A stretch of 45,802 bases of DNA from a virus (Duplodnaviria; Caudoviricetes), in the IMG/VR virus record IMGVR_UViG_3300023270_000003, positions 1 through 45,802 of that record. One strand, given 5' to 3'. Each line of letters begins with the position of its first letter. The stretch's first letter is position 1. Position numbers and translations under genes: made by a program. The notes under the pieces are model-generated. The model did not search any database. It was not told the origin of the DNA and worked only from the letters and a program-made list of their open reading frames with translations. Of the stretch, positions 14,058 through 36,803 are shown in pieces.

Positions 14058-14440
14058 TATTCCCCCACGAAGCTAAGGTCAGGCGGGCTGTAATTCGGCC
14101 CCTTCATAATCTTGCCGTCCGCCCTCTTGTGCCCCGGCTCCTTGGTCATGTTGCTGCGGTGAATCTCGGCAAACACTCGGTCAATGTCGATGCACCAGAT
14201 ATCAGCGGCGCCTAGGACCACGTACAGGATATCTCCTAAAGCATCTGCAACTGCCTGACGATTAGCCGGGCGGTCTTGGCCACCTACTGCGCCTACAAGC
14301 TCTTTGTACTCCTCCAAAATTAGCCGAAGACGCAAATCAATAGAGGCTTGGTCTTCTATCTCAAGGTCATGCTCTATGCCCATTTTGTTGTGAAATTCGC
14401 ATACCATATCAAACATGTCCGACATAGGAATATAAGTCAC
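14057..14440 (-). CDS. MazG-like NTP pyrophosphohydrolase (DR2231/dUTPase-like)
   Basis: LILEEYKEL, DALGDILYV, IHRSNMTK, DGKIMKG...PPDL. Confidence 0.88.
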   Translation of the reverse strand: MTYIPMSDMFDMVCEFHNKMGIEHDLEIEDQASIDLRLRLILEEYKELVGAVGGQDRPANRQAVADALGDILYVVLGAADIWCIDIDRVFAEIHRSNMTKEPGHKRADGKIMKGPNYSPPDLSFVGE

Positions 14441-15903
14441 TTACAAGCTTCCCAATTCTTGCCGATACCGCCGGCAGTTCTCAAATTCTTTAACGGAAAC
14501 GCAGCGCACATAATTTCGTCAGCGAGCGCAGCGACCCTCTCAGCATTACCTTCAGGACAGCGCCACCCTAGCTCATCGTGCACCTGTTTCTCAAGCACCG
14601 CGCCCAGTTTCTGCATCTCAGGAGAATTCAGTGCATCAGCCATGGCGCACCCGATTACATGAGCCCCAGTTCCTTGCATTGGCAGATTCTGTGCCCCTCG
14701 ACATGCTGAGGCGAATGCCCAGTCCGTGTCGTCTTTTCTGCCGTTGCCTCTGGCGATGAGTTGGGAGTAGTCAACGTATCTCCCGTCAAGCGCGCAAATG
14801 CCTCCGTCTCGTCGAAGAAGGCTAGCGACGAGAGACTGCCATTTAGGTACGCTTGGCACTGCTTCATAAAGTGCGCCAACAATTTCTTCTGCTCGCTGTT
14901 TTCCAACTGGTTCTCCTTGCTGGTCTCTGAGGGAGGTCGCAAAACCGTGGACAGTCCCGCCGTACTGCAACTTGTACCAGACGGCTTTGATTGCGTCTCG
15001 GTACCAGGCGAGTTCGGGGTCTGACTTAAACTCCGAAAGCTCTGACACGTCTCGTATAGGCCGACCACTAGCAGTGCGCCAATTGAGAAAAGTCCCAAAT
15101 ACACGATGAGCGTTGTAAGCATGGATATCCTGGCCTGGGGCCGTCAACTCCAGAAGTAGCGTGTCGTTAAAAAGCCACTCACACATGTTGGCCATGATTA
15201 CAACTTCTAGGGCCGTGTAATCCTTGACCACCAGCAGCATGCCGGGCGGAGCAATGAAGCCCTTGCGGATGCCGTACAGGTCTTTGCGCTTGTCACGAGG
15301 GATTTGCTGCCCCTCGGGATTTTTCATTCCAAAACGGCCAGTAATCGCCCCGACACGGTCATCCTCGTCTCCGGCTGGCCCGCAGACCGGATGCACAAAT
15401 CCATCAGGTCCGACATACTTAGGGAGTTTGGCAAGATATTTAAGCCCAGCGCTAATTCGCCGCAGCCCCATAACGCCTTCAACAATTCGTCTTTCCGGGC
15501 TGTTACTACGAGTACGGCCGAGAACCCACTCGAGGGCTGTGCGGTCGAGCTTGACTTCTCCGTCATCTATCTTAACCCTTCCCTTGAACCAGTATGGACT
15601 CTTGGGCAGGCGAAGCTGGCCGTGTAGTAACTCAGCCATCTGCTTAGGAGAGGTCCAGATGTCGTCTGGCCGTGCATTAACCACGCCCAACTCTTGCAAC
15701 GTAGCCCGCAACTCAGCAAGGCACTTGGCCTGGTCCTGTTCAGCCACACTGGCCTGCGCATTGAAATACGGTACATCAATGGCGAAACCAGCTGCTTCCA
15801 TCGCAATAGCGGCTTCTTCAATCTGTTGAATCCTCGCCGAGGCGTACAGGGCTTGCACTGGGATTTTTGTTGCTAAAATCGGCGATGACGAGTCCGGCAT
15901 CAA
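14437..15903 (-). CDS. polA: Family A DNA polymerase, polymerase domain (split gene)
   Basis: ME.AGF.ID, TGRF...NP..QQIP, motif A DYTALE, motif B R...K...Y...YG, motif C VHDEL. Confidence 0.93.
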   Translation of the reverse strand: MMPDSSSPILATKIPVQALYASARIQQIEEAAIAMEAAGFAIDVPYFNAQASVAEQDQAKCLAELRATLQELGVVNARPDDIWTSPKQMAELLHGQLRLPKSPYWFKGRVKIDDGEVKLDRTALEWVLGRTRSNSPERRIVEGVMGLRRISAGLKYLAKLPKYVGPDGFVHPVCGPAGDEDDRVGAITGRFGMKNPEGQQIPRDKRKDLYGIRKGFIAPPGMLLVVKDYTALEVVIMANMCEWLFNDTLLLELTAPGQDIHAYNAHRVFGTFLNWRTASGRPIRDVSELSEFKSDPELAWYRDAIKAVWYKLQYGGTVHGFATSLRDQQGEPVGKQRAEEIVGALYEAVPSVPKWQSLVASLLRRDGGICALDGRYVDYSQLIARGNGRKDDTDWAFASACRGAQNLPMQGTGAHVIGCAMADALNSPEMQKLGAVLEKQVHDELGWRCPEGNAERVAALADEIMCAAFPLKNLRTAGGIGKNWEACK

Positions 15904-16105
15904 ACCCCTTTTCCCAGCTCAGCTTGCTCATGGAGAGGATGCAGGCGACTACATCGAAGTTGTGGCCTAGACACCAAAAGCCAAAATCGCATTCCACAAA
16001 CCCAGAAGCAATTTCGGCCGTGTCTTGATTAAAGCTGCTAGTCAAACTTCGTTGCACTGTCAAGTGCCAGCTTAGCCACTCTAAACCTACAGTGAAATCT
16101 GCCAT
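15818..16105 (-). CDS. Hypothetical protein between the polymerase halves
   Basis: 95 aa, GGAGAGG RBS, overlaps both neighbours. Confidence 0.5.
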   Translation of the reverse strand: MADFTVGLEWLSWHLTVQRSLTSSFNQDTAEIASGFVECDFGFWCLGHNFDVVACILSMSKLSWEKGFDAGLVIADFSNKNPSASPVRLGEDSTD

Positions 16106-16866
16106 GGGTACGGCCTCTCCTGCTTCTCTCGCATCATTAACTCATAAATCCACAAGGCTAGGACCGCATCCCACGCCGCATAAGCCAAATAGCGAGCCCA
16201 CAAAGGATGGGAGGGGTTAAGGTCAGTAAGAGGAATGTGACGTCGGACACGGGCCTTCCATTCTGCCAGCACTTCCTCTGGCTCCTTAACATCGTGCGGC
16301 GGCTTCTTTTTCATACAACTTATGACACCGCAAGCACAGCGCTTTTTCCAGACTAGGTGCTCTCGGATTTCGACAGCGTCGTAACCAAGGAGTCCGTCGA
16401 AGCTTTCAGTTTTTCCAGCGCCGCAGTAATCGACGCCAAGTGAGTCAAGATCAAAGCCTTCACGTTTGGCTCGATGGGGCCACCAGAATCTGGCCATCGC
16501 CAAAGTGTTTTGCGCACCCTTGAGATGCACACCGTGGTTTCGGATAGTGTGGTGATCCACTGCCTGATTGTGGACGGCTTTTGTGAATCTTGCATCTTCT
16601 AACCAACTCTTGACACTTGGGCTCGCGAGCAGGGAACCTGCGACCACCCAAGATTGACTCTCGTGAAATCCTCTTGGTAGGAGCGGCCCGGAAGGAACGG
16701 CCACCGAAAAAACGTGACAAGTCGTGCGGCCAACCGGCGACTCCGTTCGGATATCGCAGCCGTAAAACTCTGTATCCAACCCTGCAATGCCATACTTGGT
16801 AACCTCTCTTATCATCTCCTGGGCTTCTGACTCTGTACACACATACTGTATGTGCTCAGTCATCAT
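16087..16866 (-). CDS. 3'-5' exonuclease domain of PolA (separate gene)
   Basis: ExoI LDTE, ExoII HNQAVD, ExoIII YAAWD. Confidence 0.9.
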   Translation of the reverse strand: MMTEHIQYVCTESEAQEMIREVTKYGIAGLDTEFYGCDIRTESPVGRTTCHVFSVAVPSGPLLPRGFHESQSWVVAGSLLASPSVKSWLEDARFTKAVHNQAVDHHTIRNHGVHLKGAQNTLAMARFWWPHRAKREGFDLDSLGVDYCGAGKTESFDGLLGYDAVEIREHLVWKKRCACGVISCMKKKPPHDVKEPEEVLAEWKARVRRHIPLTDLNPSHPLWARYLAYAAWDAVLALWIYELMMREKQERPYPWQISL

Positions 16867-23771: not shown

Positions 23772-24218
23772 TCATAAAATTATTGCGTAAAATGGCTTGG
23801 CATAGTCGCTCCGCCACCTCTCAGCCAGTTTCTGCGCGCGGTAGTGCAAGACAAGCTCTTGGTCGTCACTGTCCGCAACATGGAACACAGGGTCCGCCTC
23901 GCCCAGGATGCCGAAACTAACGACCCAATGCTCCCCATTATCCACCAACAGAATGCCCACAGAGCCAGCTCGGTGCGCCGCCAGTAGTCTGAGTAGGGCT
24001 ACGTCATCTCGTCGCTCTGAGAGCACGCCAGGTATCAAACCAGGGCTGTCTTTGGCCACTAGAAGCGCCGCCCGCATCAAGCCTCGGGGTGTGGTGCCCT
24101 GATTGCTGCACCCGGAGAGGCGGATTAACTCGTCCTCACTGCGGGTGATGCCCCTGGCTAGTAGCGCCGTTCGCAGGCTTGCAGGGCCGCAGCTAGCTTG
24201 CGTTGATTGGAAACGCAT
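23772..24218 (-). CDS. Stand-alone C39-like cysteine peptidase
   Basis: Q....SCGPASL, GTT, HWVV, VADS (Cys-His-Asp triad). Confidence 0.85.
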   Translation of the reverse strand: MRFQSTQASCGPASLRTALLARGITRSEDELIRLSGCSNQGTTPRGLMRAALLVAKDSPGLIPGVLSERRDDVALLRLLAAHRAGSVGILLVDNGEHWVVSFGILGEADPVFHVADSDDQELVLHYRAQKLAERWRSDYAKPFYAIIL

Positions 24219-30751: not shown

Positions 30752-30976
30752 TTACTTGACCCCCCGAACAGTAAGCTCGGTGTCAATCTCCTGTCGGAGG
30801 GCCAGCAAGGCTGAGTTGGACATCGGATGCTCGCCACCTCTGATAGATTTGATTGCGAATCCCGTTCCGTCTACAACGTAGAATTCTCCATCAGGAAGCT
30901 CCGGGCATCCTACGAAATCTTCGTACGGAATGCCCAAATTCTTACTTTCGCACAACAGCATCAAAAACCTACGCAT
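30752..30976 (-). CDS. Hypothetical early protein
   Basis: GAGG RBS. Confidence 0.5.
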   Translation of the reverse strand: MRRFLMLLCESKNLGIPYEDFVGCPELPDGEFYVVDGTGFAIKSIRGGEHPMSNSALLALRQEIDTELTVRGVK

Positions 30977-31126
30977 GTATCCTCACCAGAAGCCCTTGCG
31001 GGCGAAAATCGAAGCAAAATTGCTCCATGAGGCTTCACAAACTCGGCCACCTAACCCCCGGTACCAACGCCCCGCGCACTTATGTGGAGCCCTAGCAACA
31101 TCTTTGCCACCCTACAACTCCTTTTC

Positions 31127-31206: not shown

Positions 31207-31654
31207 CTAGGTATGATTGTGATTACTTATGCCATTTTGCCCGACCGGCAACTTAGGGACCGGTGCCGGTAACAGGCCGAGCAACTCTCGCATGTAGCGG
31301 ATGGTGCTGTCAATAGCTTGTCTACTACTGGCCGGCTGCACGAGGCCACCTTTCTCGCTCCCCAGCACACCAACCAAGCTGAGGTTAGTGCGCCGCCAAT
31401 CCACCGTCCGCAGCGCATCCAGACGCAGTGCCCGAGCTTCAGGACTCAGCTCAGAGTGATACAGGTCATGCCCCACCACACTCAGCGCCGCCAGCACCAC
31501 TGAGGTGCGCGTCAAGAATTCATCTCGAGTCGCCTCACGCCAAGGTAGCAAACCCGCCAGCATCGTGATGTACTCCCACAGCCCGGCTTTCGCGGCAGGT
31601 TCGATGGCGCTTGATGCCCTTGCGGACGTTCGTGTGGTACTTGGAAGTGTTCAT
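31207..31654 (-). pseudogene. DndB/DGQHR-family gene lacking its core (frameshifted/deleted)
   Basis: C-terminus VVLAAL..VG..L...L..VDW.R.N...I....Y.R.LLGL resembles DndB family; RBS-backed ATG 31654 is out of frame. Confidence 0.6.
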
Positions 31655-31759
31655 GTTCCGTTCCTTATTGTCTTGCTAGATTTGCCCAGCACCGACATGG
31701 TGTGGGGCCAACACAGCAGTACAACTTCAAAATCAACTATTCAGTTGTCATCTTATCTC

Positions 31760-32265: not shown

Positions 32266-32442
32266 TCAGATGGCAGCGAGGAGAGCGCGGGCGTTGTAGG
32301 CCAGAGCCGGGTTCTGCATCCTGCATGCCATGTCCAGCGCCATCACAGCGCACTTGCGGGCCAGGGCGGGCTTGCGCATCGCGTAGAGGCAGGCAAACTC
32401 CATCTCGGCGCGATAGGACAGGGTCATCATTGCGTGCGACAT
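32266..32442 (-). CDS. Hypothetical early protein
   Basis: GGAG RBS before 32442. Confidence 0.55.
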   Translation of the reverse strand: MSHAMMTLSYRAEMEFACLYAMRKPALARKCAVMALDMACRMQNPALAYNARALLAAI

Positions 32443-32482
32443 GTTGGGCTCCAGGAAGCCTCTTGCGAGGCGGTTGCAGCGT

Positions 32483-32533
32483 GGTCTCGTCAGTGCTGGC
32501 GTCACCAGCAGACCCCAAGGTGGGGTTTCGACC
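32483..32533 (-). ncRNA. Type II hammerhead ribozyme
   Basis: GGUC-GAAA-CCCC accuu GGGG-UC^-UGCUGG ugacg CCAGCA-CUGACGA-GACC; complete core and three paired stems; cut between 32511 and 32510. Confidence 0.92.
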
Positions 32534-32540
32534 TATCGGC

Positions 32541-32822
32541 TCAGTCCTCGGTGGCCGTATCGTTCATCTTGTGCCAGGTGTCCACCATGACGTTCCAGCT
32601 GTGGGTAGACCAGGTGCTGCTGGGCAGTTCGGCGGGGCATGGGCGGATGTCGTTCCAGAGGTTGTCCAAGTCGGCGCCCGACTTAAATGCCAGTTCGGCA
32701 CAGATTTTGGCGGCAGTCGCACACGCCTCACCGTTGCCGATGGCTTCCTCGCTCACGGCCAAGTACCCCGCCTTCAGCGCCTTCATGTACACGGCAGTCT
32801 CGATGCGGTTCATGCTGGTCAT
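32541..32822 (-). CDS. Hypothetical protein, probable first early gene
   Basis: GAGG RBS before 32822. Confidence 0.6.
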   Translation of the reverse strand: MTSMNRIETAVYMKALKAGYLAVSEEAIGNGEACATAAKICAELAFKSGADLDNLWNDIRPCPAELPSSTWSTHSWNVMVDTWHKMNDTATED

Positions 32823-32854
32823 GGTGTCTGTCCTCGCCTCCTGACTGGGAGTAG

Positions 32855-32870
32855 TGCACAGTCGAGGCCA
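32855..32870 (-). promoter_or_regulatory. Candidate sigma54 promoter of first early gene
   Basis: TGGCCTCGACTGTGCA (GG-N10-GC), suitably placed upstream of RBS. Confidence 0.35.
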
Positions 32871-33116
32871 GATTTGGGTCACCAGGATTCGGGCGCTTGC
32901 GAGGCTGGCGAGGCTGCACTGGCGTTCAGTAGTGTGCGCGTGGGCACGGTGACTGTACGCAAGCCCACAATTCGAGCTGCAAGTGCATGAGATTGTTCAG
33001 GGTCTGCCGCACTGCGTTGAAGTGTGCGCTGGGGCTCGGTGGGCGCTGGCGCACAGTGGGGTGTTGAGTTACAGTGAGGCTGGATGACCCTCGCTCAGTC
33101 GCCGCTGGGCTATTCT

Positions 33117-33285
33117 TGCAAGAATTGAGCCAGGAGATGTGGCACGAACTGTGCTTGATTAGCCTCAGCTCTATGCAAATCTCATGCCAACAATTTCCTT
33201 GCAAAATTCATGCCACTAACATCTCCTTGCAAGAATTGTGCCAAGAAGGGTGTGTTCCCTTTGGGAAGTTGGCACGGGACTTGCC
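33117..33285. repeat. Array of six sigma54-type -24/-12 boxes (TGGC-N9-GC)
   Basis: Minus: 33117-32, 33174-89, 33200-15, 33228-43; plus: 33140-55, 33270-85. Confidence 0.75.
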
Positions 33286-33896
33286 TTACCTATCCCACAC
33301 TGGAATAAATTTTTGAAATCTTCCTACGCACTGCGTCAATATTAGCCTATCCACTTCGATTTGGCACATTAGAGAAGTGGAATCAGCACTTAGCGAGATT
33401 TATCGAGCATACTGACCTAATAGCGAGCGAAGCGAGCCTATACCCCCATTAGCGAACGAATGTGAGCATACAGACAGCCTGTGCGGCTGGGAAGGCAGAG
33501 GGCAGAAGCTTTTTAGAAATGTATAAGACTTACTCTGCGAATGAAACTTTTCGAAGAAAAATTCATGAGCGCGAGAGCCGAACACTAATCTTGTCTAGCC
33601 TCAATCTCATTCGGCGATCGCAATCTGCGTTGAAGGTAGTCTAGAGAGCGAAGCTTAGAAATCGTATGCGCGATGTCGATTTCCTGTCAAAAAGTTGCAT
33701 TAATAAGATTGCGTGTGGTACACTAAGAACGTAGAACAGAGACGGAGGGCAGAAGCGCTTCAACTTCGTTTCAGCGTGCAAATGTCTATCGCATTTGCTC
33801 ACAGTAAGTGAGGAATGAATGCAGAGAGGCAGAGCGGAGTTCTTGTTCCGGGGAGGACTTGTACCTACATCTCCTGAATTAAATTCTGTATTCTGC

Positions 33897-33924
33897 TTGA
33901 CACTTTGTGCTAAGTGGCTATACT
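33897..33924 (+). promoter_or_regulatory. sigma70-type late promoter
   Basis: TTGACA-N16-TATACT upstream of packaging operon. Confidence 0.7.
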
Positions 33925-33938
33925 TAAACTTGGTAGGA

Positions 33939-33993
33939 ACGACGCCCCAAACGCACAAGCATAACCTAGTCGTGACAGGCCGGAGAGACGGTC
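33939..33993 (+). promoter_or_regulatory. Structured late leader ending in GACAG-GCCGGAGAGACGGUC hairpin
   Basis: ACGAC/GUCGU helix then motif shared with 24778-24796. Confidence 0.45.
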
Positions 33994-34052
33994 TTTATTA
34001 AATTTAGAGTCCTGAGTTAGCCCTCCCTAACAAGGTTAGAAGGCACCTCGCT

Positions 34053-34445
34053 ATGAAAGTGGCTGAGGCAGGATTCGCCGAAAGGCTCCTAATGGCTGGT
34101 AAGAACGAAGTCTTCGTTAAGCTTAAGGACGAGCTTGACAAGACGATTAAGCTAGTAGTCCATGCCCGTGAGTCGCTTGATAACGAGCTTGACTCCGAAT
34201 GGGCACAGAAGAAGCTCTCAGTGGACAAGGCATTCCTTGCCAAGCTGAAGGAGCTAACATCTTCTTTCAATAGCCTCACAGAGAGTAAGATTCGTCTCGA
34301 CAAGGCTGAGAAGGCTATCGAGGCTGAGTTGACTCCTGCTGAGGAGCGAGATGCCGTAAAGCGGTACCTAATGGATATGGTGCCGAGCGACATGGTGCAG
34401 CTTGTCAAGGAGGCGCGTGAGGCGAGGGGAGTGGTAGAGCATTAA
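34053..34445 (+). CDS. Putative terminase small subunit
   Basis: Helical protein, first late gene upstream of TerL; alternative start 34092. Confidence 0.5.
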   Translation: MKVAEAGFAERLLMAGKNEVFVKLKDELDKTIKLVVHARESLDNELDSEWAQKKLSVDKAFLAKLKELTSSFNSLTESKIRLDKAEKAIEAELTPAEERDAVKRYLMDMVPSDMVQLVKEAREARGVVEH

Positions 34446-34446
34446 C

Positions 34447-34875
34447 ATGCCTTCGGCTAGCAAATTTACTATCCGTCCTGCTGAGGCCGGTGACATAAAG
34501 TTCATTATGTCTTCCTGGAAGCAGTCATGGCGTGTATCTCCTTGGGCCGGATGTGTGCGGAATGATGAGTACTTTGACTCCATCTCCAGCACCATTGAGG
34601 GCCTAATTGCACGCGGTGCCACATTACAGGTAGCGTGTCCCGAGTCCTCACCTGACCGAATTGCAGGGTGGATTTGCAGCGAGCAACTTCCTGACGGCCT
34701 CTGCTGTGTCCATTACCTGTACGTGAAAGACCCCTTTCTGGGGATGAAGATTGGAGACTCTCTTGTCGAAGCAGCTTCCGGCAAAAAGCCAGGACTCTAT
34801 ACTTTCCGATTCCGCCAAGTTGCAGAAGCCTGTCAAGGCTGGCGCCACGCCCCCGAAGTTGCCAGACGAAAGTAG
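34447..34875 (+). CDS. GNAT-family acetyltransferase
   Basis: IRPAEAGDI, IAGW, VHYLYVKDPFLGMKIG..L acetyl-CoA motif A. Confidence 0.75.
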   Translation: MPSASKFTIRPAEAGDIKFIMSSWKQSWRVSPWAGCVRNDEYFDSISSTIEGLIARGATLQVACPESSPDRIAGWICSEQLPDGLCCVHYLYVKDPFLGMKIGDSLVEAASGKKPGLYTFRFRQVAEACQGWRHAPEVARRK

Positions 34876-35111: not shown

Positions 35112-36803
35112 GTGACTCTAGGTCTACGCAACATAGCACGCCGCCAAGCATCTGCTGCTCAAGCCAAGGAGAGGCAGGTCGACAAGGCCACCCTCATCCT
35201 GGAAGGAGCCAGCGAGAAGCAGCGAGCTTTGATTCTAGACCCGCATCTATATCTTGGCGCCCGTTGCCCTCGCCGTTCTGGCAAAACCTACGGGGTGACC
35301 TCAAAGGCATTGCATCTTGGCGAGTCGCGCCCGGGCTCTCGAATTTTGATCATCTCTTTGACCCTGAAGAGTACCGTTGAAAACTACTGGTCAGGAGCCC
35401 CAGGCGGACTGTGGAGTCAAAATGCGCGCTACGACCTTGGTCTCAAATTCAACACGACTCAGCACACCTGGGTTCATCCTAATGGCTCCAGAGGCCTCCT
35501 CGCGGGGGCAGAGACTAAAGCTGATATTGAACGACTTCGAGGTGCGGCGGCAGAGGCAGACCTCGTCATTCTGGACGAGTGTAAGTCTTTTGCTCCTGCC
35601 CACCTAGACGACCTAATCGAGAATGTGATTGAGCCGGGTCTCATGACTCGGAACGGTCAGTTGCTCATGGTTGGCACCCCAGGGAGCATCCCCATTGGAC
35701 AGTTCTACTCTGCCACCTGCCTACTTAGCCGCCTTGCTTCGCCCACCCCCGACGATCCGCAGCGCACTATTCCGACCTGCATCGCCTACGAGGAGTTGGA
35801 TAGCCCAGGGCCTGCTTATCGCGGGCTTACCGATGACGAGCGAAGCGACTTGTTCGTGTTGCACACCTGGACCATCCAGGACAACACAGCCGTGCCTGGA
35901 CAGTGGCTCCGTGCTCTCTCAATCAAGCGACGAAAAGGATACGGAGACGACCATCCAGTTTGGCGACGAGAGTACCTGGGTGAGTGGGTCTCTGATGCGT
36001 CTGACCTTGTCTACTCATTTGCCAAATACCGGGCTGAGGGCAAGTGTGCCTGGACGCCAGACCTCGACCTAAACCCTCTCACAGGGCTTAACGAGAAGGA
36101 GGGGCCGTGGCACTTGCTGCTTGGCCTCGACCTGGGTTTCGTAGACGACTCGGCCATGGTGCTGGTTGCCTACTCCGAGACCCTCCAGGAGTTGCGACAC
36201 ATTTACGATTTCAAAGCTCCGGGCATGGATGCTCAGGCTTTCACCGAAGAGGTGCTTGGTATCATCGCAACCTATGGCCAGCCAGAGATGATTGTGGCTG
36301 ACGTGGGCGGCGGTGGCGCTAAGATGATTATCGAGATGCTCAACCAGCGGTTTGGGTTGGCGATTCAGCCTGCATCCAAGCGCGATAAGCAGGACCACAT
36401 TGAACTCATCAATGGCGACTTTGCCCAGGACCGCATCAAGATTATCCCCAACTCAGACTTGGACCACGAGTTGTGCGGCCTGCAGTGGGACCTCTCGAAC
36501 GACTCTAAAGTTATTCTCTCGAGAACAGGTCGCCTGCGCGAAGACCCCTCGTGCCCTAATCACCTTTGTGACGCATTGCTCTACGTGTGGCGCTTCTCGT
36601 ACCACTACTACGCTACCGCTAGAGTAGACGGCCCCGAACAAGGCACCCCTGATTGGTGGCGGGTGCAAGAGGAGAAAGAAATTGAGCGAGCAATTGCACG
36701 ACGTCGAGCAGGCAATTCACGAGCACTTGGCGGATTCTTTGGCTCCGGCGACAGAGGTAATGTCCTCGGAGGATTCGGACCAGGGTTTTCAGTCTCCGGA
36801 TGA
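35112..36803 (+). CDS. terL: Terminase large subunit
   Basis: Walker A RRSGKT, Walker B VILDE, GTP motif, nuclease GLDLG..D, H..DA..Y. Confidence 0.95.
   Translation: MTLGLRNIARRQASAAQAKERQVDKATLILEGASEKQRALILDPHLYLGARCPRRSGKTYGVTSKALHLGESRPGSRILIISLTLKSTVENYWSGAPGGLWSQNARYDLGLKFNTTQHTWVHPNGSRGLLAGAETKADIERLRGAAAEADLVILDECKSFAPAHLDDLIENVIEPGLMTRNGQLLMVGTPGSIPIGQFYSATCLLSRLASPTPDDPQRTIPTCIAYEELDSPGPAYRGLTDDERSDLFVLHTWTIQDNTAVPGQWLRALSIKRRKGYGDDHPVWRREYLGEWVSDASDLVYSFAKYRAEGKCAWTPDLDLNPLTGLNEKEGPWHLLLGLDLGFVDDSAMVLVAYSETLQELRHIYDFKAPGMDAQAFTEEVLGIIATYGQPEMIVADVGGGGAKMIIEMLNQRFGLAIQPASKRDKQDHIELINGDFAQDRIKIIPNSDLDHELCGLQWDLSNDSKVILSRTGRLREDPSCPNHLCDALLYVWRFSYHYYATARVDGPEQGTPDWWRVQEEKEIERAIARRRAGNSRALGGFFGSGDRGNVLGGFGPGFSVSG

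Follow-up and report, generated by a model that had tools for sequence, protein, structure and literature searches.

A dense array of six sigma-54 (RpoN) boxes lies in the gap between the early and late arms of this phage genome, and 11 of 33 terminase relatives keep the architecture of the array while the sequence flanking it differs. The boxes are very probably genuine sigma-54 sites, judging from their sequence. In the relatives, they crowd beside a conserved TTTCCC(C) motif and mostly point away from it, and this link of sigma-54 arrays to a terminus-like motif with outward polarity is what the present locus adds. Our preferred reading, to which we give a probability of about 0.45, is that host sigma-54 holoenzyme would park on the array as a non-firing cap or anchor of the entering DNA end.

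Six sigma-54 boxes in the gap between two gene arms

The window, by which we mean the whole stretch of 45,802 nucleotides analysed, is an entire phage genome in circularly permuted form, whose first 133 bases recur as its last 133 with a single mismatch. Its minus-strand (early) arm encodes an amidoligase, an amidotransferase, an Erf-like protein, SSB, a helicase, a split DNA polymerase A and ThyX, and its plus-strand (late) arm encodes the terminase large subunit (TerL), portal, capsid, adaptor and tail genes. The two arms diverge from a gene-free gap of 1.17 kb (~32880-34050), and the array lies inside this gap. The first early-arm ORF (32541..32822, minus strand) encodes 93 amino acids without a family match. 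The first late-arm gene (34053..34445, plus strand) encodes a conserved 130-aa helical protein, a candidate small terminase by position only, which has 41 distinct homologues among the fetched loci and for which searches named no family or fold. TerL follows at 35112..36803 (plus strand; phrog_2, E 1e-30).

Several other genes deserve mention. Between the first late gene and TerL lies a conserved 142-aa gene (34447-34875, plus strand), also present in L003 and L004, whose product looks GNAT-like by eye and has no family match; as a query, it found no extra relatives. DNA polymerase A (14437-16866, minus strand) is split into a 3'-5' exonuclease ORF (16087-16866) and a polymerase ORF (14437-15903). 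The early arm also holds a 118-aa ORF (31207-31563, minus strand) matching the C-terminal part of DndB (PF14072, E 5e-8), a regulator of DNA phosphorothioation, and a stand-alone C39 peptidase-like ORF (23772-24218, minus strand) whose match is below the cut-off.

The layout is Bruynoghevirus/Kuravirus-like: two arms, the terminase beside the gap, an early-arm amidoligase and amidotransferase, and an SU10-type adaptor, features that presumably typify podoviruses of this kind. Terminase and capsid homology to this group is not close (TerL is 18% identical to that of LUZ24; the capsid has no match). No close cultured relative was found, TerL giving one weak GenBank match and the capsid none.

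A sequence-only reading of this region had picked out six 16-mers at 33117-33285, and all six are present where it placed them and on the strands it gave. Scored against a 12-position consensus in which GG and GC are obligatory, box 5 matches at 12 positions and the other boxes at 11. All six fit the sigma-54 -24/-12 consensus, given as TGGCAC-N5-7-TTGCT in the available text of PMC12316311, at the exact GG-N10-GC spacing, as do those in the TerL-found relatives. Box 1 (33117..33132, minus strand) points into the early arm. Box 2 (33140..33155, plus strand) stands back-to-back with box 1 and head-to-head with box 3 (33174..33189, minus strand), which is followed after 26 bp by box 4 (33200..33215, minus strand) and after a further 28 bp by box 5 (33228..33243, minus strand), the last box left of the TTTCCC(C) motif. 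Box 6 (33270..33285, plus strand) lies 16 bp after this motif and points to the terminase arm. Start-to-start distances along the array are 23, 34, 26, 28 and 42 bp.

Scoring the whole window against the RpoN consensus, a check that the same reading had proposed, gives seven sites of at least 11, six of which are the array boxes. The seventh is a lone box (31094..31109, minus strand, 11/12) between genes of the early arm, ~120 bp upstream of ORF 30752-30976. At a score of at least 10, the gap holds six sites, compared to at most three in 2000 dinucleotide shuffles of the gap, and the densest 200-bp cluster over 60 whole-window shuffles held two sites. The strict pattern TGGC-N7-TTGC matches 12 times in the window (2.96 expected), with five matches inside the array. 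Chance and plain tandem repetition were ruled out as the origin of the array, because the box cores vary while GG and GC stay constant, and because two control patterns in IMG/VR (N5, with one extra spacer base, and a permuted motif) gave one match each, both in tandem repeats.

Among metagenome runs with the window sequence, a leaf-litter run was best and may be the origin of the sequence, and strains were found in two soil runs from other studies. The soil-run strains carry one-base insertions after 33193 and 33226, in spacers only, and in a third run the DNA left of 33169 is replaced by new sequence with another box (single low-depth contigs in each case). The segment directly left of the array (32377-33084) is strain-variable, and sequence right of 33084 is ~97% kept in one strain. 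In one strain, a tRNA-like start follows at 33996, where L129, L130 and L138 have tRNA genes; there are none at ~33996 in the window. A 26-bp inverted repeat pair (81%; 31671-31696 and 33098-33123) spans 1.4 kb; box 1 and a GC-rich hairpin (33093-33110) both overlap its right arm.

Arrays and a terminus-like motif in terminase relatives

Relatives were collected through TerL, so the set carries no bias for the box motif. It comprises 33 other loci with 34-78% TerL identity and at least 1.5 kb upstream. A cluster of at least three boxes is present in 11 of these 33 loci, and one (L004) has 12 boxes; several of the other 22 begin too far right to cover the gap. In eight TerL-found loci, including our own, the distance between the TGG(C/T) and TGC halves is N10 in 40 cases and N8, N9 or N11 in none. 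The GG-N10-GC spacing is thus kept in related phages, where the earlier reading had suggested that it be sought.

Aligning the right edges of the arrays reveals a common order: a [G/A]TT(T)CCC(C) motif (33254..33260 in the window, plus strand), a box, and then, at a fixed distance from the motif, a CCC(A)CA element with an A/T tract (33293..33320, plus strand), both the motif and the element with its tract being family-conserved. The candidate motif is present in 25 of 31 family loci, and a right-pointing box begins 10-18 bp past it in nine of the 31, compared to 0.96 expected for random positions. In L253 and L256 the right-hand box next to the motif is the sole box; L254, L259, L138 and L136 have no nearby boxes, yet keep the motif and the A/T tract. 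Many family members have the motif but no box, so the array would be dispensable or host-dependent.

Box polarity was counted over 22 loci, with the caveat that ~9 of them had several candidate motifs, one being picked by eye, and that related loci are non-independent: among boxes up to 500 bp to the left of the motif, 44 of 53 point left, and among those up to 60 bp to its right, nine of ten point right. A box occurs within these 60 bp in 10 of the 22 loci. Over the same 22 loci, box density is 6.2 per kb near the motif, compared to 0.14 per kb in TerL and downstream DNA.

The TTTCCC(C) motif is probably a packaging or terminus signal. We read it in this way because it is constant, is kept in box-free relatives, precedes both TerL and the first late gene, and resembles a feature of LUZ24 (Bruynoghevirus). 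In LUZ24, the two arms likewise diverge from a gap that contains sigma-70 promoters, with the small and large terminase genes beside this gap; the terminal repeat of LUZ24 lies there, and a T/poly-C run similar to the motif in the window opens its right end. However, the two TerL proteins are only 18% identical over 90 residues, and LUZ24 has no box array. Its layout is a guide to the end position by analogy, not a mapping. Contigs start 70-670 bp left of the motif in several family loci and never exactly on it, and contig starts therefore do not fix the genome end. One contig starting at 33084 has a depth of 16, compared to 13.5-13.8 elsewhere; contig depth is flat, and the run may itself have supplied the window, for which reasons depth was not used for terminus placement.

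The fixed distance of 10-18 bp between box and motif could also mean that parked holoenzyme serves as a landmark for packaging or insulation, by marking the cut site, aiding duplication of the terminal repeat on concatemers, or stopping cross-arm transcription. In T7 and T4, packaging is tied to RNA polymerase or a sigma factor. The array lies upstream of TerL in every locus where TerL was found, and a weak sigma-70-type promoter match (33661..33690, minus strand, 10/12) faces the array, which would suit such a role. On the other side, the motif is kept in box-free relatives, and small inverted-repeat and phi29-like genomes, in which no concatemer has to be cut, have arrays at their ends too. 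We consider a landmark function quite unlikely.

Arrays in unrelated phages

A collection search for three exact boxes lying 22-52 bp from one another indicates ~350 IMG/VR stretches with triple-box arrays (estimated from 22 of 64 parts; 120 were fetched). GTDB genomes (596 Gb) yielded 16 stretches on 12 contigs, of which four are plain tandem repeats and eight are variable-core arrays on MAG contigs, phage-derived or not. The GTDB array contigs are binned with Bacteroidota, Desulfovibrionaceae, Methylococcaceae, Gemmatimonadota and one Deltaproteobacteria bin. A Myxococcota host, which the sequence-only reading had suggested, finds no support in these bins, and Mx8 and Mx9 have no array. A homology search with SSB named no useful organism, and no CRISPR or prophage link to a host was found.

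None of 21 GenBank phage records scanned whole has such an array. Thirteen of these were scanned by pattern (ICBM1, ICBM2, MEP401, VP41s3, CRP-5, Mx9, Mx8, ICP2, MW202697, PQ867845, LUZ24, phiEco32 and YuA), and the remaining eight are small inverted-repeat phages. Since none carries an array, we have no array phage with both a mapped end and a known host. DU_PP_III has one box ~335 bp from an end, and K58 g2 has a near-box inside its repeat. A blastn search of two arrays against GenBank phages returned chance matches only, plus L241.

The 80 loci with flanks reduced to 42 after dereplication, and 113 ORFs of at least 250 aa were searched. TerL proteins of several PHROG families lie near 23 of the 42 arrays, downstream of the array in all 23 and within 3 kb in 21. 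The boxes themselves keep no consistent direction relative to TerL in unrelated phages (81 toward, 56 away).

The boxes lie where terminases bind, and a phage protein such as the small terminase might recognize them, in which case they would merely resemble sigma-54 sites. We think this very improbable. The same 12-position consensus, including its Y, R and W degeneracy, occurs beside terminases of several PHROG families and also in terminase-free small phages, and close relatives with the same first late gene have no boxes. A sigma-54 DNA-binding domain (PF04552) is absent from all five array records, our own included.

Some arrays sit at the ends of contigs. L086 and L087 are the two ends of a single contig of 11,897 bp, whose inverted terminal repeats measure at least 530 bp, and each end has at least five identical inward sigma-54 boxes, the first 58 bp from the end. 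L241 has one inward box per end, 19 and 42 bp from the ends, and a phi29-like contig (L063) has an array at its end with boxes pointing inward. In total, 23 of the 120 arrays are no more than 300 bp from a contig end, compared to 6.6 expected in this set, which is not dereplicated, and these 23 show inward as well as outward patterns. This enrichment may arise from a hypervariable early region that breaks assemblies, as in the window's own region. G5/C5 runs flank 47 of 60 arrays versus 177 of 648 background windows, and the true ends of LUZ24 and astrithrviruses also begin with poly-C.

The near absence of arrays from bacterial chromosomes, where harm would be expected, bears on the idea that the boxes are a sponge. 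By titrating the host's sigma-54 holoenzyme, which is scarce, they would shut down stress or defence operons that depend on sigma-54 (psp, rtc, some cas genes), chiefly after phage DNA amplification. The boxes are near-perfect, numerous and of mixed orientation, with a packing that allows joint occupancy, and the available text of PMC3844500 places a sigma-54 promoter upstream of cas1 in Salmonella. However, an incoming genome would bring six boxes against at least 70 chromosomal sites in Salmonella (PMC3844500, same text), and the arrays keep a fixed place and polarity, neither of which a sponge needs. We therefore regard a sponge as rather improbable. The sequence-only reading had offered a sponge, a roadblock or an anchor near the end; the free sponge fares poorly with the fixed position and polarity, and the anchor near the end fits best, given the motif link, TerL downstream in 23 of 23 arrays and the inverted-repeat ends; a pure insulator is also conceivable.

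Box packing and the proposed state of a bound polymerase

Box packing was compared across 77 independent arrays, counting each spacing once per array; the search pattern had confined three boxes per array to 22-52 bp and left the phase free. Among 152 tandem spacings of 22-63 bp, 74 are 25-29 bp, seven are 31-35 bp, 28 are 36-40 bp and none are 22-24 bp. Tandem spacings of at least 33 bp (n = 72) show a 10.5-11 bp period (Rayleigh p 0.012-0.005). In head-to-head pairs, the distance is 17-21 bp in 35 of 49 cases, leaving 1-5 bp between boxes, and in back-to-back pairs it is 21-26 bp in 27 of 46. The tandem spacings in the window, 26 and 28 bp, fall on the main peak of 25-29 bp. The close packing remarked on earlier is both real and patterned across arrays. 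Spacings of ~2.5 and ~3.5 helical turns would put neighbouring boxes on opposite helix faces, as expected if a bulky protein fills adjacent boxes together.

How would a holoenzyme behave on such boxes? According to the available texts of PMC3844500 and PMC4551910, the closed complex that sigma-54 holoenzyme forms is stable even when no activator is present, and binding alone can repress. The former adds that closed complexes are reversible, and the latter that activator-free firing is rare in vivo and that the -12 GC makes a repressive contact. A closed complex of this kind can also obstruct other proteins on the DNA. In bacterial sigma-54 promoters such as glnAp2 and pspA, the two elements, the GG-N10-GC spacing and the degenerate positions are the same as in our boxes. 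However, promoters of this type are single sites that use an activator and an enhancer 80-150 bp upstream, whereas the phage arrays have 3-13 boxes 17-50 bp apart in both directions, no phage activator and, for most boxes, no gene directly behind. By sequence, the boxes answer to the definition of sigma-54 sites, but the array is not classifiable as a promoter.

A doubtful but realistic possibility is that the array is nevertheless an inward battery of early promoters, in which pre-loaded sigma-54 holoenzymes would be fired by host activators, from solution or from unrecognised enhancers. Such a battery would give early transcription, and perhaps transcription-driven entry like the T7-type A promoters, possibly coupled to the state of the host. 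The orientation of the boxes, mostly from the motif toward either arm and, at inverted-repeat ends, toward the interior, is what this reading expects. A degenerate GG-N10-GC box (32855..32870, minus strand, 9/12), whose predicted +1 immediately precedes the AGGAGG of the first early ORF, is a candidate for a genuine sigma-54 promoter of that ORF. The good box at 31094 and a lone box preceding an early ORF in L003 point the same way, as does the stretch from the array to the first early ORF, in which no sigma-70 match is clear. IHF-like sites occur in 12 of 77 arrays versus 70 of 1540 shuffles. A host-encoded activator is possible, and activators without a DNA-binding domain exist (PMC3844500, available text).

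The geometry speaks against promoters. Head-to-head gaps of 1-5 bp and tandems of 25-29 bp place start sites inside the next box; for boxes 4 and 5 in the window, the predicted start (~12 nt downstream) falls in or against the next box, and the nearest early ORF starts ~295 bp from box 1. As the earlier reading had stated, no enhancer-binding protein is encoded: PF00158 is absent from the genome (Pfam scan, 74 ORFs) and from all five array records, our own included, with the control positive in 14 of 14. The mixed direction relative to TerL and the rarity of unaided firing also count against this reading.

Promoters of sigma-70 type may already serve the flanking genes. A match at 33897..33924 (plus strand, 11/12) lies ahead of the packaging genes, with similar promoters at the equivalent place in L003, L004, L128 and L130, although the three matches in the region compare to 3.2 expected in shuffles and are weak. 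No sigma-70 match lies inside the array. A CACTACT motif occurs twice in the gap (32850-32856 and 32928-32934, minus strand) and once in L004 (681-687, minus strand), where it immediately precedes the ribosome-binding site of an early ORF, with similar AGTCA and GGAGG after it; it is possibly another promoter element.

Promoters at phage ends offer a partial likeness. T7 A1-A3 are tandem early promoters at the first-entering end. The T7-type early promoters of LUZ19 (P002-P006; PMC10914365, available text), five strong promoters at the left end, are likewise several host-polymerase sites near an end, pointing inward. They are of sigma-70 type, need no activator to fire, share one orientation and are well spaced, whereas the window has -24/-12 boxes of which four of six are co-oriented. 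Within the part of that source available, Pseudomonas phage YuA has one sigma-54-like promoter, P015, the sole phage precedent that we found, and the YuA record contains no cluster.

In the reading that we prefer, the boxes flanking the motif would each take up host sigma-54 RNA polymerase, so that several molecules sit idle in closed complexes, with the TTTCCC(C) motif placed at the physical genome end. The boxes would be occupied jointly, the tandem boxes 25-29 and 36-40 bp apart lying on alternate helix faces. The parked enzymes may hinder host end-loading nucleases or end sensors, and may ratchet or hold the DNA in the cell; occasional firing of boxes into the early arm could also occur. 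Since the bound enzymes need no phage gene expression, they would act in the first minutes.

The density of boxes near the motif, their polarity away from it, the inward boxes at inverted-repeat ends and the constant downstream position of TerL all favour this cap. So do a packing unlike that of ordinary promoters, the mixed direction relative to TerL and the sigma-70-type promoters already ahead of genes. The arrays are also virus-specific, and none of the five array records encodes an activator. Against it, a passive cap does not need strong polarity, which promoters fit equally well. Moreover, where a genome carries terminal proteins its 5' ends are protected already, and bound proteins can be displaced by RecBCD.

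Two known systems resemble parts of the proposed cap. At repressive or silent sigma-54 sites in E. coli and Salmonella, holoenzyme acts as an obstacle with the -12 GC intact; as far as the available texts go (PMC4551910, PMC3844500), these are scattered single chromosomal sites that compete with sigma-70 promoters and are not arrayed, viral or tied to an end. The injection-stop region of phage T5 (bioRxiv 10.1101/866236, available text) is non-coding and terminal, with eight ordered DnaA boxes and a proposed role in entry. It differs in using another host protein (DnaA), 10-kb repeats and two-step injection, and the T5 model is itself a proposal; the array in the window also lies in a non-coding gap, its terminal position being likely rather than mapped, and this gap has no DnaA boxes. 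In its working, the array would most resemble this T5 region or the tandem left-end promoters of LUZ19, while belonging to neither type.

More tentatively, many unrelated phages may have converged on phased sigma-54 box arrays at their ends as an instant, expression-free cap, which would shield the DNA from nucleases and end-sensing defences and ratchet it in. If so, this would be a counter-defence made of DNA only and a non-transcriptional use of a sigma factor. How an unprotected linear end survives and enters before gene expression is an open question for most tailed phages, and recruitment of a stable host complex by a DNA element in cis would be a new solution. Whether read as cap, promoter or sponge, the arrays are an undescribed phage use of sigma-54, on hundreds of contigs and nearly absent from host chromosomes; searches covering mainly the openly accessible literature found no description of them. 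The arrays may mark genome ends and rpoN-positive hosts in uncultured phages.

Other elements accompany individual arrays. Sites resembling parS occur in one of 77 arrays, and at least two DnaA boxes in four of 77, versus none of 818 background windows; both are too rare to be part of a general array design. Two parS-like palindromes lie beyond the inward boxes of L086/L087, and DnaA boxes lie among or beside sigma-54 boxes in L036 (seven), L023, L081 and L098, and also in L056 and L091. L214 (a 383-kb MAG contig) and L033 have several separate box clusters within 5-12 kb (18 and 32 boxes) and are possibly large phages with many arrays. PurZ, which serves 2-aminoadenine DNA synthesis, is encoded on the array-bearing contigs L010 and L065.
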